From a virus, in the UHGV virus genome UHGV-1588268: a stretch of 11,566 bases of DNA; one strand, given 5' to 3'. The notes below the pieces were generated by a model, which was given only the letters and a program-made list of their open reading frames with translations, did not search any database and had not been told where the DNA came from. The position numbers and the translations under genes are program-made. Shown here in pieces: positions 208 through 10,809 of this stretch. Positions within the stretch are counted from its first letter, which is position 1, and each line of letters begins with the position of its first letter.

Positions 208-1458
208 GTGCTTACCGATACAAAATTAAAAAATCTCAAGCCGCAGGACAAACTGTACAAGGTCTCCGATCGTGACGGGCTGTATGTAGCTGTGCTTACG
301 TCAGGCACGGTCTCGTTTCGCTATGACTACCGTATCAACGGTCGCCGCGAAACACTGGTAATCGGGCAGTATGGGCGTGACGGTATCAGCCTGGCAGAAG
401 CGCGAGAAGAACTGATTGCTGCAAAGAAGCTGCTTAAAGCAGGCCAGTCACCGGCTGCGGCTAAACGTGACGGTATCAAAAAGATTCGTGGTGCCGAGAC
501 GTTTGCGGTACATACCGACAGTTATATGAAACACGTCATCCTGGCTGACAGTACCCGCGCAATGAAACAGGCGGTGATCGACCGTGACATACTTCCGGTT
601 CTTGGCAATAAAATGATGGCTGAAATTACCACATCAATGGTTCGTGATTTGTGTGACCGGATTGTCGAACGCGGTGGCCGGGCAACAGCAGTGCAGGCCA
701 GGGAGATCATCAGTAGCGTATACCGTCACGCCAATGACCGTGGTCATGGTTTGTTTAATCCTGCGGCTGACATTAAACCTTCGTCTATCGCCATATTTAA
801 ACCACGAGAGCGAACACTGACACCAGAAGAAATTGGCCTGTTCTTCCGCACGCTGGATGCCATTGGTGCTATGGGCACTATGAAAATGGCTTTAAAACTG
901 GTGCTTATCACTATGGTTCGTAAGGGCGAATTCACCAATGCAACGTGGGATGAAATAGATTTTAAAAAATGGACATGGACAATTCCTCCAGACCGCATGA
1001 AGGGAAGCCGGGCGCACGTTATTTACCTGCCCAAACAGGCACAGGATATATTGGTCGGGTTGCAGATGTGCGCTGGTGGAAGTGAATATCTGGTTCCTGG
1101 TCGTTACAATTTCCGGAAGCCATTATCTAATGCCGCGCTGAACTCTCTGATCGACAGAACGGTGAAAATAATAAATGAAGATGGTGAGCATATTCAGGAC
1201 TTCACTGTACATGATATGCGCCGTACAGCCAGTACGTTGTTGCATGAGGCTGGTTATCCTTCAGACTGGATTGAAAAGGCTCTGGCACATGAGCAGAAAG
1301 GTGTGCGCGCCGTATATAACAAAGCGGAATACGCCAGACAGCGCGCCTACATGTTGCAGCAGTGGGCCGATATGATTGATTCATGGATTGACGGGGAGCA
1401 TACGGATCTGATTCCGTTCTCCCCGTCGAAGTTTGAGAAGTGGATGGCGGGGGAATAA
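208..1458 (+). CDS. int: Tyrosine site-specific integrase, P4/CP4-57-like family
   Basis: 416-aa ORF with GTG start. N-terminus (LTDTKLKNLKPQDKLYKVSDRDGLYVAV...) matches the arm-binding domain typical of P4-family integrases; C-terminus carries H-x-x-R and a candidate catalytic Tyr (HDMRRTAS...VRAVYNKAEY). Family assignment from memory, not a search. Confidence 0.9.
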   Translation: MLTDTKLKNLKPQDKLYKVSDRDGLYVAVLTSGTVSFRYDYRINGRRETLVIGQYGRDGISLAEAREELIAAKKLLKAGQSPAAAKRDGIKKIRGAETFAVHTDSYMKHVILADSTRAMKQAVIDRDILPVLGNKMMAEITTSMVRDLCDRIVERGGRATAVQAREIISSVYRHANDRGHGLFNPAADIKPSSIAIFKPRERTLTPEEIGLFFRTLDAIGAMGTMKMALKLVLITMVRKGEFTNATWDEIDFKKWTWTIPPDRMKGSRAHVIYLPKQAQDILVGLQMCAGGSEYLVPGRYNFRKPLSNAALNSLIDRTVKIINEDGEHIQDFTVHDMRRTASTLLHEAGYPSDWIEKALAHEQKGVRAVYNKAEYARQRAYMLQQWADMIDSWIDGEHTDLIPFSPSKFEKWMAGE

Positions 1459-1461
1459 CGT

Positions 1462-1656
1462 TTAATAGTTCTGCTGATTTTCTTCCATCTCTGCTTCTGC
1501 TGCCAGTGATTCAATTTTGTTTTCGAATATTGCTGACAGTGTTGCAAATTCAGCATCAGTGACAGCGGGAATTGGAACAAACCTGATCCCGCTGTGTGCA
1601 AGCATGTTTGCAGTTTCAAGGCATTTTCTTAAATCTGCTGGTGATGCCCTGTTCAT
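1462..1656 (-). CDS. Hypothetical small acidic protein (64 aa)
   Basis: Start ATG overlaps the methyltransferase stop as ATGA (translational coupling); convergent with int. Sequence MNRASPADLRKCLETANMLAHSGIRFVPIPAVTDAEF...EAEMEENQQNY. No family recognised. Confidence 0.4.
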   Translation of the reverse strand: MNRASPADLRKCLETANMLAHSGIRFVPIPAVTDAEFATLSAIFENKIESLAAEAEMEENQQNY

Positions 1657-2303
1657 GCAGCACGCTCCCGCCCCTGGTTGTCTGTTGGTGACAGCGGAGC
1701 ATTGCTGAATGCATTTGTTAATCCGCCAATATCCAACGCGTATCCAGGGTGTAGTTGCACTGCCGGGTCTTCGCACTGATTACCCCAAACATCGAAGCCA
1801 TGAGACGTCTGGCGGGCGAACAGTTCAATGCGAGAAACATCGCCTAATAATTGCACAAGTTTTTCACGAACGATATCTGGCTTTCTTGAATGCTCAAGCC
1901 GCGGTGCGGTAAATGACTGAACGATCCCTGCATTAATGCGCGTAGGTAGTTTTCCCTTTACCGCAAACAGGCAATCTTCACTATTGGCGCGAGTCATGTG
2001 TCCCATACCCATAACCAGTTTATCTGGTTGTCGACTACCACATTTTATCCACGTGAAGCCCTTCATCGTCATCAGACGGAATCCCCAGGCTTCAACAACT
2101 TTTAGTGCTTCGAGTGGTTGTGTTGGCACCCACCACATGGCCAACAGACAGTTTTCATCGGCCAAATCCCACACAGGAAGGCGGCAGATATCCAGCACAC
2201 TCATAACCGGATATTTAAAACCGGCACCGCGATTACCATCTGCGGCTTTGTCCCGGTATACCCAGGGTGGATCTGCATAGATTAGTGTGTATTTCTTAGT
2301 CAT
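1653..2303 (-). CDS. MT-A70 family N6-adenine DNA methyltransferase (phage orphan methylase)
   Basis: 216-aa ORF. N-terminus MTKKYTLIYADPPWVY carries the DPPW catalytic motif of MT-A70-type adenine methyltransferases; WGF and FDVWGN motifs further downstream. Confidence 0.85.
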   Translation of the reverse strand: MTKKYTLIYADPPWVYRDKAADGNRGAGFKYPVMSVLDICRLPVWDLADENCLLAMWWVPTQPLEALKVVEAWGFRLMTMKGFTWIKCGSRQPDKLVMGMGHMTRANSEDCLFAVKGKLPTRINAGIVQSFTAPRLEHSRKPDIVREKLVQLLGDVSRIELFARQTSHGFDVWGNQCEDPAVQLHPGYALDIGGLTNAFSNAPLSPTDNQGRERAA

Positions 2304-2595
2304 AAACCACCCCGCAACATCCTATACCGCTATAGTCTCCACGGCGAAGGCCGTTACCTTTTGTGATACATTGGTCCCTGCGAACCGCGATCCTTGCACG
2401 CTCAACATCACCAGAAGCAACATCCATACACTGAAGCCAAAGGTGAGCGGCAATGCGGAACTGCCCTTTTTTCTCTCTTTCAATCGCGCGTTTTTCGATC
2501 TCTATCGCCGCAGGAGTAACGGCGACAATCTTTGACGGACTGCGCATTGAAACCTTATTCATGTGATATTTTTCAAGTCGGCTTAACTTTCTCAC
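2296..2595 (-). CDS. Hypothetical protein (99 aa; start uncertain)
   Basis: ORF overlaps the methyltransferase start by 8 nt. The GTG at 2595 overlaps the upstream stop as GTGA and has a GAGGG ribosome-binding site; internal ATGs are alternative starts. No family recognised. Confidence 0.45.
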   Translation of the reverse strand: MRKLSRLEKYHMNKVSMRSPSKIVAVTPAAIEIEKRAIEREKKGQFRIAAHLWLQCMDVASGDVERARIAVRRDQCITKGNGLRRGDYSGIGCCGVVYD

Positions 2596-2708
2596 TTAAT
2601 CCAACCCTCTCTGAAAATTAATGCCAGCAGATAAAGCCATGCTGAAACAGAGGCCAGGAATAAGTACCATCCTGACCATTTGATCCAGTGCCTTAGCAGC
2701 GCACTCAT
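2592..2708 (-). CDS. Putative small hydrophobic peptide (38 aa), candidate membrane protein
   Basis: Own translation: MSALLRHWIKWSGWYLFLASVSAWLYLLALIFREGWIK. ATG overlaps the alpA stop as ATGA. One predicted transmembrane helix. Below the cutoff of the supplied ORF track. Confidence 0.3.
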   Translation of the reverse strand: MSALLRHWIKWSGWYLFLASVSAWLYLLALIFREGWIK

Positions 2709-2953
2709 GCAGCGTTGCTCACGGGACGATATACACGTTGCTGAACAGGAGGTTTTTTACCCTGGAACTCTGCCGGGCTTGCTGCCTGACGTTCATCAAG
2801 CCAACGCTCAACTTCGTCACGGTTCCATGCGCAGCGTTTGTCAGTGATATACCAGCGTTTAGGAAATTCCCCTGCGCGCTCCATACGGTCGATAGTGCTC
2901 CATGACAGTGGCACCACCGCCAGGAGTTCCTTCTTACCTAATGCACCTTTCAT
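2705..2953 (-). CDS. alpA: AlpA/Xis-family DNA-binding protein (excisionase / prophage regulator)
   Basis: 82 aa; LSWSTIDRMERAGEFPKRWYITDKRCAWNRDEVERWL fits the AlpA/excisionase winged-helix pattern; AGAGAGG ribosome-binding site before the ATG. Confidence 0.8.
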   Translation of the reverse strand: MKGALGKKELLAVVPLSWSTIDRMERAGEFPKRWYITDKRCAWNRDEVERWLDERQAASPAEFQGKKPPVQQRVYRPVSNAA

Positions 2954-3002
2954 AAATACCTCTCTTGGTTGCAGTGCGGCGCGTGTGGCACCGCGGTGGT
3001 GG

Positions 3003-4025
3003 TTACTCGAATTCTGGACGTATATCGTTAAGCGTCATCATGAATTTTTGGTGATATTCATCACCGAGCTTTTCAGCCATGGTGTTAATCTCATTTTCAG
3101 CGCGCTTGAACATCGTTTTTGCATCTTCAGCAGATGGATCCAGGCTATTAAGTATCGCGATGATATATTCTCGAGCTTCTTCTCGTTCTGAATCTGAAAT
3201 TGGCGACAGGTGTTGACGCTCATCGTCAACTACGGAATATTCACCAGTGATAACAGCTGCGTTATCTTGGCTAAGTCCAGCTTCAGCGCGCTCATCCATA
3301 ACAACAGCCTTCTGCATTTCAATAGAAACAGGAAGATATTTGAATAGTCGGCGAATTACTGTTTTTTTAGCCATCTCATCGAAGTGATCAACCCATGGGC
3401 CACTGCTACCGGCTTTGCTCAGTGCACGAACTTTCTCAATGTCTGCCCGGCTCATAACTTCAAATTGGACTCCGCCATCTTTCAGTCGTGCAACGGCGTA
3501 AACGTGCGTTAATTCTCCGCGGTCACCTGTTTCGCAAGGTAAATGCTCGAGCGTTTCTTCCAGGCCGTATGAGTAGCTGAATTTGTCGTTTGTATGTACG
3601 GTACGAGCCGAGATACTCAGGATCTGCCCAGAGCGGCGGGCAAGGTCAATCATTCCGCGATAGCCGATAATCAGCTGTGCTTCTGTAGATACGGTTTCCC
3701 ATCTTCCATTTACTTTCTGGCGTTTGTCGAACGGTATCAGGTAAGCGTGTCCAAGAGCTCCGCCTGGTTCAAGACCCAATTGGGCACATTGCATAATTGC
3801 CCCCAGGAAGCTGGCTTGGTCGCATGATGCAAGTTTTGGAACCTTTCGGATCTCTGTGGTTGCTATGCGCGCCAGACGGTCTGCTGTCATGTGCTTTGGA
3901 AGTGCCAAAGCCATCTGAGCTTTAATTTTTGGGTCTGCCAGAAGTCCGGCCAGAGTTGTTGGTTTCTCATTATGATGTGCAACTTGGTTACCGGTAGCCG
4001 CTGCCTTAAGTGCATTGATAGACAT
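3003..4025 (-). CDS. recT: RecT-family single-strand annealing recombinase
   Basis: 340 aa. Long blocks match Rac RecT as I remember it (RIATTEIRKVP, QCAQLGLEPGGALGHAYLIPF, LIIGYRGMIDLARRSGQI, THVYAVARLKDGGVQFEVMSR, GPWVDHFDEMAKKTVIRRLFKYLPVSIEMQKAV). AAGGAG ribosome-binding site. Confidence 0.92.
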   Translation of the reverse strand: MSINALKAAATGNQVAHHNEKPTTLAGLLADPKIKAQMALALPKHMTADRLARIATTEIRKVPKLASCDQASFLGAIMQCAQLGLEPGGALGHAYLIPFDKRQKVNGRWETVSTEAQLIIGYRGMIDLARRSGQILSISARTVHTNDKFSYSYGLEETLEHLPCETGDRGELTHVYAVARLKDGGVQFEVMSRADIEKVRALSKAGSSGPWVDHFDEMAKKTVIRRLFKYLPVSIEMQKAVVMDERAEAGLSQDNAAVITGEYSVVDDERQHLSPISDSEREEAREYIIAILNSLDPSAEDAKTMFKRAENEINTMAEKLGDEYHQKFMMTLNDIRPEFE

Positions 4026-4034
4026 TTTTTCTCC

Positions 4035-4934
4035 TTACTTCATTCTGAAGACGCGTTGTGTCGTTGTTGTTTTGAATTTTTCGAATAACTCAGGGTGTAC
4101 TGACTGGAATAGCTTCTGGTCGAATCTGTTGCTGATCTGAGATTTCCATGTGCAGAGCGGCTTTCCGTCCAGGGTCAGGACTGAGTGCTCTTGCATGTAC
4201 ATCTTCAGCTTCTCTTCTGATATAGCTATTTCTTCTTCCAGTGATTTTCTGCGTGACTTCATGTCTCGTAGATCGTTGAATAGTGCGAGTGCCTTTCCGT
4301 CAGCCTCGATACTTGTCCCGGCATCTTTCTCAAACATCAGCGATACATCGCTTACGCTGGTAGCTTCCGGCGGGTTAAGATTTTTCACTCGGTCCCAGAA
4401 AGCGATTTCTTTTTCTAAGATCGCCTGGATAGTTTCTTCATCACGCTCAACCCGATAGATTCGGAAGTCGTCGCCACCGATAAGCACACCGAAAACGCAT
4501 ACCTGTTTGTTTGTAACCATCAACCCGTGCATGGCCTGGGCCGTGTAATGCACAGGAATTGCATCTGTCTGGATTTCTCCCCATTCTTTGGCTTTGAACG
4601 GACTAACTGTTTTGATCTCAATGTTCTCGCCTGACGCTGCTTCTGCATCGATCTCAGCTGCAATAAAATCGTAATCACGGTGGATATAGCGGTTTCCGCG
4701 ATGAACGATTTCCATCCCTGTTTCCTCAGAAAGCAGGTCTATTACGTATGGCTCCATACGCTGGCCACGCGTGAAAACTTTCTGCTTGCTTGGGTCTACT
4801 GGTTTGACACGTGGCTGGACCTTATCCAGATAAACCTCAAGCGGGGTGCGCCATGGGCTAATTCCAAGAATCCCTGCAACATCGCTTCCTCCGATGTATT
4901 TTGTTCTATCCATGATTCCAGCGTTCTGCATCAT
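4035..4934 (-). CDS. YqaJ/lambda-Exo-like recombination exonuclease (PD-(D/E)xK)
   Basis: 299 aa. N-terminal DRTKYIGGSDVAGILGISPWRTPLEVY is typical of YqaJ-type phage exonucleases; sits immediately upstream of recT, the usual exo-recT pairing. Start overlaps the upstream stop (ATGA). Confidence 0.85.
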   Translation of the reverse strand: MMQNAGIMDRTKYIGGSDVAGILGISPWRTPLEVYLDKVQPRVKPVDPSKQKVFTRGQRMEPYVIDLLSEETGMEIVHRGNRYIHRDYDFIAAEIDAEAASGENIEIKTVSPFKAKEWGEIQTDAIPVHYTAQAMHGLMVTNKQVCVFGVLIGGDDFRIYRVERDEETIQAILEKEIAFWDRVKNLNPPEATSVSDVSLMFEKDAGTSIEADGKALALFNDLRDMKSRRKSLEEEIAISEEKLKMYMQEHSVLTLDGKPLCTWKSQISNRFDQKLFQSVHPELFEKFKTTTTQRVFRMK

Positions 4935-5230
4935 GCCGCTTCCCTCTGCCCATCAATCCGATCCGCCAGATCCCAGCGGGCGATAATTGCCATTGCCTCG
5001 CGCCGGTAGGAATCTATCAGTTCTTCGAACTCAGGGCTGTCTTTAGCAGCCTCCAGCACTTCCTGACGAACGCCTTTGCCTGTTACAACGTCGAAAGTTG
5101 AGGACAGTTGATGAAGTCGGATGCTCTCAATCAGTTCAACTTGTCGGTCATATAGCTGTTCTGACAGGCGGTAGTCCTTGTCGAATGCCAGCATGATTTT
5201 TTGAAGATTTTTCTGCTGATTAACGTTCAT
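4931..5230 (-). CDS. Hypothetical early protein (99 aa) upstream of the exo-recT pair
   Basis: ORF with GGGAGGG ribosome-binding site 6 nt before the ATG at 5230 (MNVNQQKNLQK...). The track's longer version starts at 5245. Coupled to exo via ATGA. No family recognised. Confidence 0.55.
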   Translation of the reverse strand: MNVNQQKNLQKIMLAFDKDYRLSEQLYDRQVELIESIRLHQLSSTFDVVTGKGVRQEVLEAAKDSPEFEELIDSYRREAMAIIARWDLADRIDGQREAA

Positions 5231-5232
5231 TA

Positions 5233-5385
5233 TCAGCCCTCCCATATCTCGTTATCGTTGGCTACATCGCGAGCTTCTTTGCTGACGAAAGCCCACTTAA
5301 TGCCTTCCTGTAAGGTGCGGAACTTCCAGCTCATGAATCCGCATGCAGTAACGCAGTACCAACCGTTGATGATTTTCCACTGCAT
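5233..5385 (-). CDS. Putative small Trp/Cys-rich protein (50 aa), first ORF of the leftward early operon
   Basis: Own translation: MQWKIINGWYCVTACGFMSWKFRTLQEGIKWAFVSKEARDVANDNEIWEG. GAGG ribosome-binding site 9 nt upstream; lies directly downstream of the putative leftward promoter and operators. Confidence 0.35.
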   Translation of the reverse strand: MQWKIINGWYCVTACGFMSWKFRTLQEGIKWAFVSKEARDVANDNEIWEG

Positions 5386-5538: not shown

Positions 5539-6123
5539 TTATTGTTTGCTTTTTTCGTTCTGGTTGATGACAAATTCAATGTAACTTTCGATCTTTGCTT
5601 TCTCGGTTTCGGGTAACAATGCGTAGCGTGAGCGGTCATAGTTGATAGTCGCAGGGTCGTGCGGGTGAATCAGTAGTTCATATCCGTGACGCCCGAATGC
5701 GGATGCAACATTCTCCAGGGTGGAAATGGAAACGCTGACCTCATTGTTTAACAGGCGGCTGATTGTCACCTGGGCGACGCCGGATGCGCGGTGAAGTTTT
5801 CCCTGTGTTGAAAGGTCGCGGCTTTCGCTCATCCAGCGTTCCAGATTGTGAGCCGCCAGCTGACCTATATCGCTCGGGCCGACAGGCTGAAAACCCTCCT
5901 GAGAAAGCGAACGATCAATATCAAGCCAGTTACGGGGTTTATTGGCGGCAGCTTCAATTTTTCGTGCAACCTGGTCGCCGATAACCTTCTTGCCAAGAGC
6001 CCAGCGGTTTACCAGATTTGCCTGAGTTCCAAGTTTTTCTGCCATCCGCGTCTGAACACCATTGAATTCACGGTCGATCAAGTCGTTGAGATTTTGCCTG
6101 CGGACGTCCTGGATACTTTTCAT
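5539..6123 (-). CDS. Phage repressor candidate: tandem HTH (XRE/Cro-C1 type) DNA-binding protein, no S24 peptidase domain recognised
   Basis: 194 aa. Two HTH-like segments (QTRMAEKLGTQANLVNRWALGKK and KLHRASGVAQVTISRLLNNEVSVSISTLENVA). Divergent from a Cro-like gene with operator palindromes between them. C-terminal 45 aa show no Ala-Gly/Ser-Lys autocleavage signature. Confidence 0.75.
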   Translation of the reverse strand: MKSIQDVRRQNLNDLIDREFNGVQTRMAEKLGTQANLVNRWALGKKVIGDQVARKIEAAANKPRNWLDIDRSLSQEGFQPVGPSDIGQLAAHNLERWMSESRDLSTQGKLHRASGVAQVTISRLLNNEVSVSISTLENVASAFGRHGYELLIHPHDPATINYDRSRYALLPETEKAKIESYIEFVINQNEKSKQ

Positions 6124-9593: not shown

Positions 9594-10288
9594 GCGAGAT
9601 TAACTATCAGGCTCTGCGACTGGCGGCAGAAAATGCAACACTAGGCGAATGGTGTACTGATGACTACCATGGAGTAATTGCCGATGCCGGACTGAACGCC
9701 AATTACTACATAGCATCATGCTCAGGACCGGATAATCGCGCCAATAAACGATTCATAGCCGCAGCCAATCCGGCTACCGTGCTGGCACTGCTGGATGAGA
9801 ACGAAAGCATGTGCCGCGACCTCATTGCTCGCAATGGTGAGATTGAAGGGCTTCGAAAACTGGTTGCTGAACTTGAGGAGACAAAATCAAAACTCAACGA
9901 GCAGCGTGAATATTACGAAGGTGTTATCTCGGATGGAAGTAAGCGTATTGCTGAACTGGAGAAAAGCGAAGAGCAACTCATCAGCGAGCGTGATCATGCT
10001 GAGTCTGCTTTAGCTGATATGTATTTTGCAGCAACCGGGGATAGGCCGGAGTGGAGCAACTTGTTCGGCTTTTCAGATGCTGTAGATGCCGTGGTTGACA
10101 GAATTGCTGATTTAGAAGCTAAACAGCCATCGCCAGTAGTACCGGAAGGACTGATTAAAGCGGTGCGTTTTTATGAGCAGGTAAAACGTGAGAACCCGCC
10201 AGTCGAAACCGGAGCATGGAAAGACGCTGTTGACTGGGTGCTCAAAGAGGCTTGCCCGGCTGTAAACATTGGCATCAAAGGAGAGTGA
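9590..10288 (+). CDS. Ead/Ea22-like family protein
   Basis: GTG start with AAGGAGG ribosome-binding site (the track's ATG at 9557 has none). N-terminus SEINYQALRLAAENATLGEW...CSGPDNRANKRFIAAANPATVLALLDENE matches my memory of Ea22-like prophage proteins; coiled-coil middle section. Confidence 0.6.
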   Translation: MSEINYQALRLAAENATLGEWCTDDYHGVIADAGLNANYYIASCSGPDNRANKRFIAAANPATVLALLDENESMCRDLIARNGEIEGLRKLVAELEETKSKLNEQREYYEGVISDGSKRIAELEKSEEQLISERDHAESALADMYFAATGDRPEWSNLFGFSDAVDAVVDRIADLEAKQPSPVVPEGLIKAVRFYEQVKRENPPVETGAWKDAVDWVLKEACPAVNIGIKGE

Positions 10289-10290
10289 GA

Positions 10291-10809
10291 GTGCAGATTT
10301 CACCGGTTACTCTTCGTGTTGCGAAGGCGTTTATATCCAGACATCACCGACACAATAAACCCCCGGTGGGGCATAAATTCAGCATTGGTCTGAGAAATGA
10401 TGCCGGAGAATTGATAGGTGTGGCGACAGCCGGTAGACCTGTTGCACGACATTTGGACGATGGATTAACGCTTGAAGTAAATCGCACATGTACCACAGGA
10501 GAACGCAACGCTAACAGCGCGCTTTATGGTGCTGTCTGGCGGGCAGCAAAGGCTATGGGTTATCAACGTTGTATTACGTACACCCAGGCAGATGAATCAG
10601 GAGCATCTCTTCGCGCAGCTGGTTTTGTTCGTGTGAAAGAGCTTCCTCCAAGAAAAAGCTGGGCGGAATCAAGCGTCGCCCTGCGGAGTAAACGCGATCC
10701 GGTCGGAAACGGTGGTGTTCCTCGTGTGCTCTGGGAAATCAGGAGAATGAGTACCACTGGCATTCGCATCAAAGGAGACGCAGGAGAACAAAACGATGAA
10801 AAACCGTAA
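10291..10809 (+). CDS. Conserved phage protein, GNAT-like acyltransferase fold suspected
   Basis: GTG start with AAAGGAGAG ribosome-binding site. Motifs RHHRHNKPPVGHKF, LIGVATAGRPVAR and the C-terminal SGASLRAAGF resemble GNAT acetyl-CoA-binding and motif-B regions. Function is inferred. Confidence 0.55.
   Translation: MQISPVTLRVAKAFISRHHRHNKPPVGHKFSIGLRNDAGELIGVATAGRPVARHLDDGLTLEVNRTCTTGERNANSALYGAVWRAAKAMGYQRCITYTQADESGASLRAAGFVRVKELPPRKSWAESSVALRSKRDPVGNGGVPRVLWEIRRMSTTGIRIKGDAGEQNDEKP

Follow-up and report, generated by a model that had tools for sequence, protein, structure and literature searches.

Genes of the integrase-proximal cluster

We analyzed five consecutive minus-strand genes at positions 1462-2953 of the virus genome UHGV-1588268, a stretch of 11,566 nucleotides (nt) that is referred to here as the window. 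In the direction of transcription, the cluster comprises alpA, an open reading frame (ORF) of 38 amino acids (aa), a 99-aa ORF, an MT-A70 methylase gene, and a 64-aa ORF (Table 1). The coordinates agree with those of an earlier note on this DNA, which had proposed that the five genes form a coordinately expressed accessory module.

Table 1 Genes and sequence features of the cluster and of its surroundings in the window
Feature	Position	Strand	Description
alpA	2705-2953	minus	82 aa, AlpA-family winged-helix regulator
38-aa ORF	2592-2708	minus	single-pass membrane peptide (epsilon15 gp32 / phiV10 p35 family)
99-aa ORF	2296-2595	minus	GTG start, PerC-family small helical protein
MT-A70 methylase	1653-2303	minus	216 aa, N6-adenine methyltransferase family
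64-aa ORF	1462-1656	minus	DUF1382, lambda Orf63 homolog
P4-type tyrosine integrase (int)	208-1458	plus	Pfam Arm-DNA-bind_3, Phage_int_M, Phage_integrase
RecT annealing protein	3003-4025	minus	Pfam RecT, 194 bits
YqaJ/RecE-like exonuclease	4035-4934	minus	Pfam YqaJ, 83 bits
Small early gene, phrog_856	4931-5245	minus	PHROG match, E 2.7e-54
Small early gene, phrog_898	5233-5385	minus	PHROG match, E 1.9e-38
Promoter-like site TTGACA-17-AATTAT	5447-5419	minus	probable start of early-left operon
Terminator-like hairpin	5518-5499	minus	just downstream of repressor gene
Helix-turn-helix repressor gene	5539-6123	minus	Pfam HTH_3, E 1.2e-9

We compared the region with phage records and bacterial genomes. 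Bases 1400-3000 were 98.6% identical to Escherichia phage phiV10 (NC_007804) over 1601 nt and 99.6-99.9% identical to other E. coli phage and prophage records (99.6% to two phage records). Identity to Salmonella phage epsilon15 was about 78% from alpA to the 99-aa gene. This near-identity to phiV10 and E. coli prophages indicates that the window comes from a phiV10-type (genus Uetakevirus) temperate phage or prophage. The region was present in 561 of 5426 complete E. coli genomes (~10%), mostly at 95-99% identity, and at least 80% of it was covered in 17 phage records and 537 E. coli genomes. All five genes are already annotated in phiV10 (p32-p36), and the NCBI pipeline names four of them in E. 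coli genomes, as an MT-A70 family methyltransferase, a PerC family regulator, a helix-turn-helix regulator, and a DUF1382 family protein. The cluster is thus already known, and it is ordinary apart from a recurring pairing of PerC-like and adenine methylase genes, which is itself undescribed.

Reading the junctions from the sequence confirmed the earlier description of five minus-strand ORFs linked by overlapping stop and start codons. The alpA and 38-aa genes share ATGA, the 38-aa and 99-aa genes share GTGA, and the methylase and 64-aa genes share ATGA, each a 4-nt overlap. The 99-aa gene and the methylase gene overlap by 8 nt (ATGACTAA). The GTG of the 99-aa ORF is the sole uncertain start among the five genes, as its position differs among records: in phiV10 an ATG 30 nt downstream is used, giving 88 aa and no overlap, whereas the overlapping start is used in the records of epsilon15, SPN1S, Tyrion, and PAS61. 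The GTG start is favored because a GAGGG Shine-Dalgarno-like motif lies 9 nt 5' of it. A similar motif, AGAGAGG, lies 5' of the alpA ATG.

The overlaps had been taken as an argument for stoichiometric expression. Of the 27 same-strand junctions in the 19.6 kb of annotated phiV10 sequence, 15 show an overlap, which measures 4 nt in 9 cases. Since such overlaps are the norm throughout the phage, they offer no argument for a stoichiometric complex, and the run of overlaps at the cluster is no more than expected by chance for this phage. They represent the ordinary translational coupling of a compact phage operon, real but not distinctive.

Every one of the five ORFs matched a Pfam and/or PHROG family. 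Pairwise dN/dS ratios against orthologs were 0.05-0.10 for alpA, 0.09-0.24 for the 38-aa ORF, 0.05-0.13 for the 99-aa ORF, 0.04-0.27 for the methylase, and 0.10 for the 64-aa ORF (comparison with phiV10 only). All five ORFs are therefore real genes, with purifying selection acting on each.

The three small proteins, which had been described as unrecognized partners of the methylase, could all be assigned to families, none of which has an established biochemical mechanism. The 38-aa peptide matched phrog_17484 ('membrane protein') over its full length (E 2.5e-26) and is annotated in phiV10, epsilon15 (gp32), SPN1S, and Tyrion. It has a hydrophobic stretch from W13 to F32, with K10 and R33 on either side.

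The 99-aa protein matched Pfam PerC (PF06069; 30.1 bits, cut-off 22.6) and phrog_868 (E 5.7e-62). Its AlphaFold model, built with 67 sequences, contained three helices over residues 28-82 (predicted local distance difference test score ~85) and a disordered C-terminus. No significant structural match to the model was found in PDB or BFVD. The nearest PDB folds were MIT domains (E 0.3, not significant) and the nearest BFVD folds were small phage proteins, of which one annotated as ANR (AraC negative regulator) superposed with a root-mean-square deviation of 0.9 A over 56 residues (E-value 1.4, not significant). The protein also fell short of the NCBIfam ANR_neg_reg profile (23.6 bits, cut-off 32) and so was not assigned to that family. 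The modeled fold fits a small protein-binding regulator. The protein shares the PerC domain, above the Pfam threshold, with PerC of enteropathogenic E. coli and Pch of enterohaemorrhagic E. coli, which likewise are small and encoded by mobile elements and prophages. Silencing by H-NS is relieved by Pch, a homolog of PerC (PMC4764244), and such relief or transcriptional activation is known only for Pch and PerC. The 99-aa protein has little identity to other proteins with this domain (~29% over 49 residues with YfdN). Its gene has no known link to the LEE pathogenicity island and belongs to a phage early operon, with a methylase gene directly downstream.

The 64-aa protein matched Pfam DUF1382 (105 bits, cut-off 27) and, over residues 2-62, PDB 8DSB (E 8.5e-13). 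The latter is the nuclear magnetic resonance structure of lambda Orf63, a dimeric protein encoded in the exo-xis region with a pro-lytic phenotype (PMC10869804).

A probable early-left operon with variable cargo

We then compared the layout around the cluster with that of phiV10 and epsilon15. phiV10 has all five genes, arranged and oriented as in the window, with a convergent P4-type integrase gene and with RecT and exonuclease functions upstream. It differs from the window in that exonuclease and RecT are annotated as one fused 586-aa RecE-RecT protein (L001 10604-12364). In the window the two are separate genes, 9 nt apart, as they are in epsilon15, where they stand in the same order upstream. 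The epsilon15 genes gp28-gp33 include alpA, the 38-aa gene, perC, and the MT-A70 methylase gene, but also an additional 35-aa gene ahead of the methylase and, in place of DUF1382, a 60-aa 'transacetylase repressor' gene after it. By its near-identity and gene order, the cluster is a member of the phiV10/epsilon15-type early-left, integrase-proximal module.

The repressor gene upstream is equivalent to phiV10 p40 and to the epsilon15 repressor gene, for which operators have been annotated. On the minus strand, no promoter-like or terminator-like site was found from 5419 to 1462. Together with the upstream layout, the lack of such an internal site argues that the cluster is the distal part of a repressor-controlled early-left operon. 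The integrase gene is convergent with the cluster. The stop codons of int and the DUF1382 gene lie 3 nt apart (1456-1464), and no terminator-like site was found between the two genes. Because the convergent stops are so close, early-left transcription would run antisense into int, possibly damping integrase expression in lytic growth. Elsewhere in the window, a terminator-like hairpin was seen at 62-85, within the first 207 bases, at a distance upstream of int similar to that of the annotated terminator of phiV10.

AlpA matched Pfam Phage_AlpA (PF05930; 24.2 bits, cut-off 21), phrog_66 ('excisionase and transcriptional regulator', E 2e-16), and PDB 8c3t ('AlpA family phage regulatory protein', E 1.8e-11). 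Pfam and PHROG matching of the ORFs in the window found no separate xis gene, and a distinct xis besides alpA was therefore rejected, AlpA being the only excisionase-type gene present. Given this and the position beside a P4-type integrase gene, AlpA probably serves the prophage as its excisionase (recombination directionality factor), as far as can be judged from its sequence. No tRNA gene, checked for as an attachment site, was found in the window. Related Klebsiella and E. coli prophages (L168, L254, L261) were integrated beside guaA, which encodes GMP synthase.

The cluster had previously been placed in a cargo position between int and xis. There is indeed a cargo slot beside int, filled by variable cassettes in related phages; a separate xis gene is lacking, however, and the cluster itself begins with the probable xis, alpA.

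Gene order and cassettes could be read directly from the related records. A constant order was found, namely exonuclease, recT, alpA, (38-aa gene), perC, variable small genes, adenine methylase, zero to two small genes, and the convergent integrase. It was kept in six further Uetakevirus-type records (epsilon15, SPN1S, Tyrion, BUCT554, BUCT711, and ST512-KPC3phi13.3) and extended across phages of Escherichia, Salmonella, Enterobacter, and Klebsiella as well as prophages of several further genera. The methylase slot was always filled by a methylase, but the family varied among MT-A70, Dam (PF05869), and a Dcm-Dam fusion in Uetakevirus prophages. In E. coli relatives with at least 97% identity, the methylase was followed by DUF1382, by a NinI phosphatase gene, or by an 82-aa gene together with Ant. 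In other genera, the position separating perC from the methylase was occupied by DUF1317, DUF1382, a winged-helix gene, DndB/DGQHR, or a weak PD-(D/E)XK-like gene. The PD-(D/E)XK-like gene was seen upstream of the methylase in L007 and L011 (23.9 bits, below cut-off). A DndB/DGQHR gene stood ahead of the methylase in SPN1S (L257 3120-4705) and at 3937-5594 of L010 (Pfam DndB, E 4e-48 in L010). The presence of these genes indicates that the slot can hold larger DNA-modification or restriction-like cassettes.

To see how constant the companions of the methylase are, we surveyed 80 methylase-homolog loci, no two of which came from the same species-level genome. Of the 80 loci, 1 contained DUF1382, 7 the 38-aa gene, and 22 a PerC-like gene; alpA lay upstream of the methylase in 10. 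The earlier note had held that methylase homologs without the flanking small ORFs would speak against a module; with the 38-aa and DUF1382 genes so rarely present, such homologs were in part what we found. By their low co-occurrence and the variable cassettes, the five genes are one arrangement, particular to a lineage, of a cargo region that is a mosaic, and not an indivisible module. Runs of overlapping small ORFs beside an integrase gene are normal phage architecture, and the cluster needs no new category.

A comparable arrangement is the exo-xis region of lambda and Shiga-toxin phages (orf60a, orf63, orf61, orf73, ea22, ea8.5), which influences the lysis-lysogeny decision (PMC8614690, PMC10869804). 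Both there and in the window, small non-essential early genes, including an Orf63/DUF1382 homolog, lie between recombination genes and excision/integration genes. The Orf63 homolog is the only one in common, however. The PerC-like gene, the membrane peptide, and the methylase are found in the window and not in the exo-xis region, and the integrase gene is convergent in the former and co-directional in the latter.

A solitary MT-A70 methylase

The methylase matched Pfam MT-A70 (PF05063; 80 bits, cut-off 23.9) over the entire 172-position profile, phrog_359 (E 3e-120), and PADLOC MTase_II (E 2.7e-77). The DPPW catalytic motif at residues 11-14 is intact, and the core contains 60 invariant columns in an alignment of 14 homologs (64-84% identity). 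In total, 2557 homologs were found. Relatives in PDB are ciliate MT-A70 proteins and METTL3.

No restriction endonuclease gene was found beside the methylase gene, whose neighbors, PerC and DUF1382, contain no nuclease domain by Pfam. The enzyme is therefore solitary and does not belong to a type II restriction-modification system with an adjacent endonuclease, in agreement with its earlier description as an orphan. In lysogens, prophage methylases are typically not expressed; their constitutive expression is harmful, and they are thought to protect the element when it enters a new host (PMC5778455, PMC4659465). M.EcoGI and M.EcoGII, which are likewise solitary prophage-encoded adenine methylases, are silent in the lysogen, harmful if constitutive, and thought to be induced to shield phage DNA from restriction (PMC5778455). 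They are 349-aa beta-class enzymes with a DPPY motif, whereas the enzyme of the window is a 216-aa MT-A70 family protein with DPPW. The likeness is one of mechanism by analogy, not of membership, and a non-specific action of the window methylase cannot be assumed from M.EcoGI and M.EcoGII. As candidates for characterized homologs, M.EcoGI and M.EcoGII were rejected on grounds of family and M.EcoGIX as a plasmid-borne, single-strand-specific enzyme. By this analogy, anti-restriction through methylation, one of the functions suggested in the earlier note, stays the most likely role of the methylase and is a plausible one.

In the early-right region of the window, a 185-aa ORF at 10252-10809 (plus strand) matched phrog_1384 ('Mom-like DNA modification protein', E 3.5e-42), with a Pfam Mom score under the cut-off (22.3 bits, cut-off 27.1). 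Judging by this match, the phage may hold a second adenine-modifying enzyme there.

Taken together, we consider it reasonably likely that the cluster forms the end, nearest to the integrase gene, of the early-left operon in a temperate phage of the phiV10/epsilon15 type, where a solitary methylase modifies phage DNA after induction and is flanked by swappable cargo. In this explanation, we infer the timing of expression, the target of methylation, and the function of each product. Transcription would start at the repressor-controlled promoter near 5447-5419 and run through the two small genes, exonuclease, RecT, alpA, the 38-aa peptide, the PerC-like gene, the MT-A70 methylase, and the Orf63-like gene. 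As parts of what appears to be a single repressor-controlled operon, the genes would be silent in the lysogen and turned on together at induction or infection. AlpA would act as excisionase and regulator. The methylase would N6-methylate adenines of the replicating phage DNA ahead of packaging, which would let the progeny withstand restriction in the following host. The PerC-like protein may be a small helical regulator acting via protein contacts, the Orf63 homolog would tilt development toward lysis, and the 38-aa membrane peptide would be an accessory gene.

Several points weigh against this explanation. Operon timing and DNA methylation are predicted from sequence, and the substrate of the enzyme could be DNA or RNA. 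The promoter at 5447-5419 is a consensus match only, and AlpA is taken to be an active excisionase on the basis of its family. Our literature searches, which covered phiV10, MT-A70 prophage methylomes, M.EcoGIX, and M.EcoGI, turned up no characterized close homolog of the methylase. In addition, PerC is consistently placed just upstream of methylases, a hint at some dependence between two or more of the genes for which the explanation does not account.

Another explanation is that the methylase is a lysogenic-conversion or epigenetic factor, expressed from the prophage to alter host expression or protect the host chromosome. This would be in keeping with the presence of the cluster in about one in ten complete E. 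coli genomes, and some phage-borne methylases, such as M.EcoGIII, do alter host transcription (PMC6602927). However, the gene lies at the far end of an operon below the repressor-controlled region, has no promoter-like site of its own, and belongs to a group, the prophage orphan methylases, whose members examined so far are silent in lysogens (PMC5778455, PMC4659465). We regard this explanation as unlikely.

We also considered whether the cluster could be a toxin-antidote, abortive-infection, or other defense module, with the 38-aa peptide or the methylase as toxin and a small neighbor as antidote. Some small hydrophobic peptides are toxic, the five genes are closely coupled, and unregulated promiscuous methylases harm the cell (PMC5778455). 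Yet apart from MTase_II, no toxin, antitoxin, or defense family was found with Pfam, NCBIfam, or PADLOC, and Rfam, searched for an antitoxin RNA, gave no RNA match at the gathering threshold. The toxin-antidote module put forward in the earlier note was rejected on the basis of these searches. Moreover, relatives that retain the methylase can do without the 38-aa gene and DUF1382, and all five genes are embedded in a lytic early operon and not autonomously expressed. Such a module is very improbable.

Recurrent pairing of PerC-like and methylase genes

In all 22 loci of the 80-locus survey with a PerC-like gene, it was located upstream of the methylase gene, on the same strand and within 2 kb. 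Considering only the ORF immediately upstream of the methylase homologs, PerC was the commonest family (14 of 78), followed by PaaX-like proteins (6) and by NinB and several helix-turn-helix or replication-type families (5 each). The PerC-like and methylase genes often overlap.

The pairing was observed in unrelated contexts. Besides the Uetakevirus early-left operons, where PerC can be followed by a methylase of the MT-A70 or Dam family or by a Dcm-Dam fusion, it occurs in the early-right operons of lambdoid prophages. There a longer form of PerC with an N-terminal extension (a predicted winged helix), labeled as MarR-family in some database records, is encoded after the replication genes and before MT-A70. 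In the CPS-53 prophage of E. coli K-12, yfdN (PerC, E 8e-9) directly precedes yfdM (L163 8113-8882), which encodes a truncated Dam-type (PF05869) methylase unrelated to MT-A70. Among viral contigs with YfdN-like genes (L170-L249), a full-length 217-aa Dam (PF05869) gene followed in 72 of 80, and a gene for a LexA_DNA_bind protein in the remaining 8. This PerC-centered survey gave only near-identical YfdN-type loci and represents one lineage, not a census. A methylase gene was also found within three genes downstream for 6 of 7 PerC proteins whose contigs were examined, a biased sample since the profile that yielded these proteins had been derived from PerC genes adjacent to methylases and YfdN was chosen because of yfdM. 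Our literature search found no paper on an association of PerC with methylases.

We also observed rare in-frame PerC-methylase fusion proteins, P0003 (L264 1501-2394) and P0001. The P0003 fusion arises by the loss of one T from a TTT run, GGTTTATG, at the 8-nt overlap in two assemblies; these are short-read assemblies, and the fusion may be a sequencing error.

The arrangement resembles that of Mu com-mom and of the controller (C) proteins of restriction-modification systems, in which a small regulator gene overlaps a potentially harmful DNA-modification gene. As in those systems, the small gene lies immediately upstream of the modification gene and overlaps it. The likeness is positional only, and the short PerC form has neither a zinc finger nor a helix-turn-helix.

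This pairing raises the possibility that the PerC-like and adenine methylase genes form a functional two-gene module, in which PerC controls the expression or timing of a harmful methylase or is its protein partner, with the other three genes as bystanders. The fixed upstream position and strand, the rank of PerC among immediately upstream families, the recurrence in Uetakevirus early-left, lambdoid early-right, and CPS-53 contexts, the Dam genes that follow YfdN-like genes, the exchange of methylase families behind PerC, and the frequent overlaps with the one-base fusion all point in this direction. On the other hand, the sampling was biased toward methylase-adjacent PerC genes, 58 of the 80 methylase loci have no detectable PerC, and intervening genes between PerC and the methylase are common. 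Canonical PerC and Pch are known as virulence regulators, not as methylase partners, and the slot could merely be an insertion hotspot for DNA-modification cargo. A two-gene module is therefore a tentative proposal. The pairing as such suggests a functional link, perhaps the control of a harmful methylase, and we treat it as a lead only.

A broader and still more speculative proposal is that the PerC-domain proteins encoded by enterobacterial prophages are dedicated to phage adenine methylases, as their partners or regulators. The two genes would have stayed together through exchanges of the methylase family and through moves between early-left and early-right operons, and the PerC/Pch virulence regulators would derive from such a phage system.

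About 1 in 10 sequenced E. coli strains carries this predicted MT-A70 methylase, which could affect restriction barriers and the host range of phages used in therapy. If the broader proposal on PerC is true, such a phage system would have coupled DNA methylation to gene de-silencing or restrained a toxic methylase. The pairing across unrelated prophages and methylase families offers a testable clue to the poorly understood mechanism of PerC and Pch.

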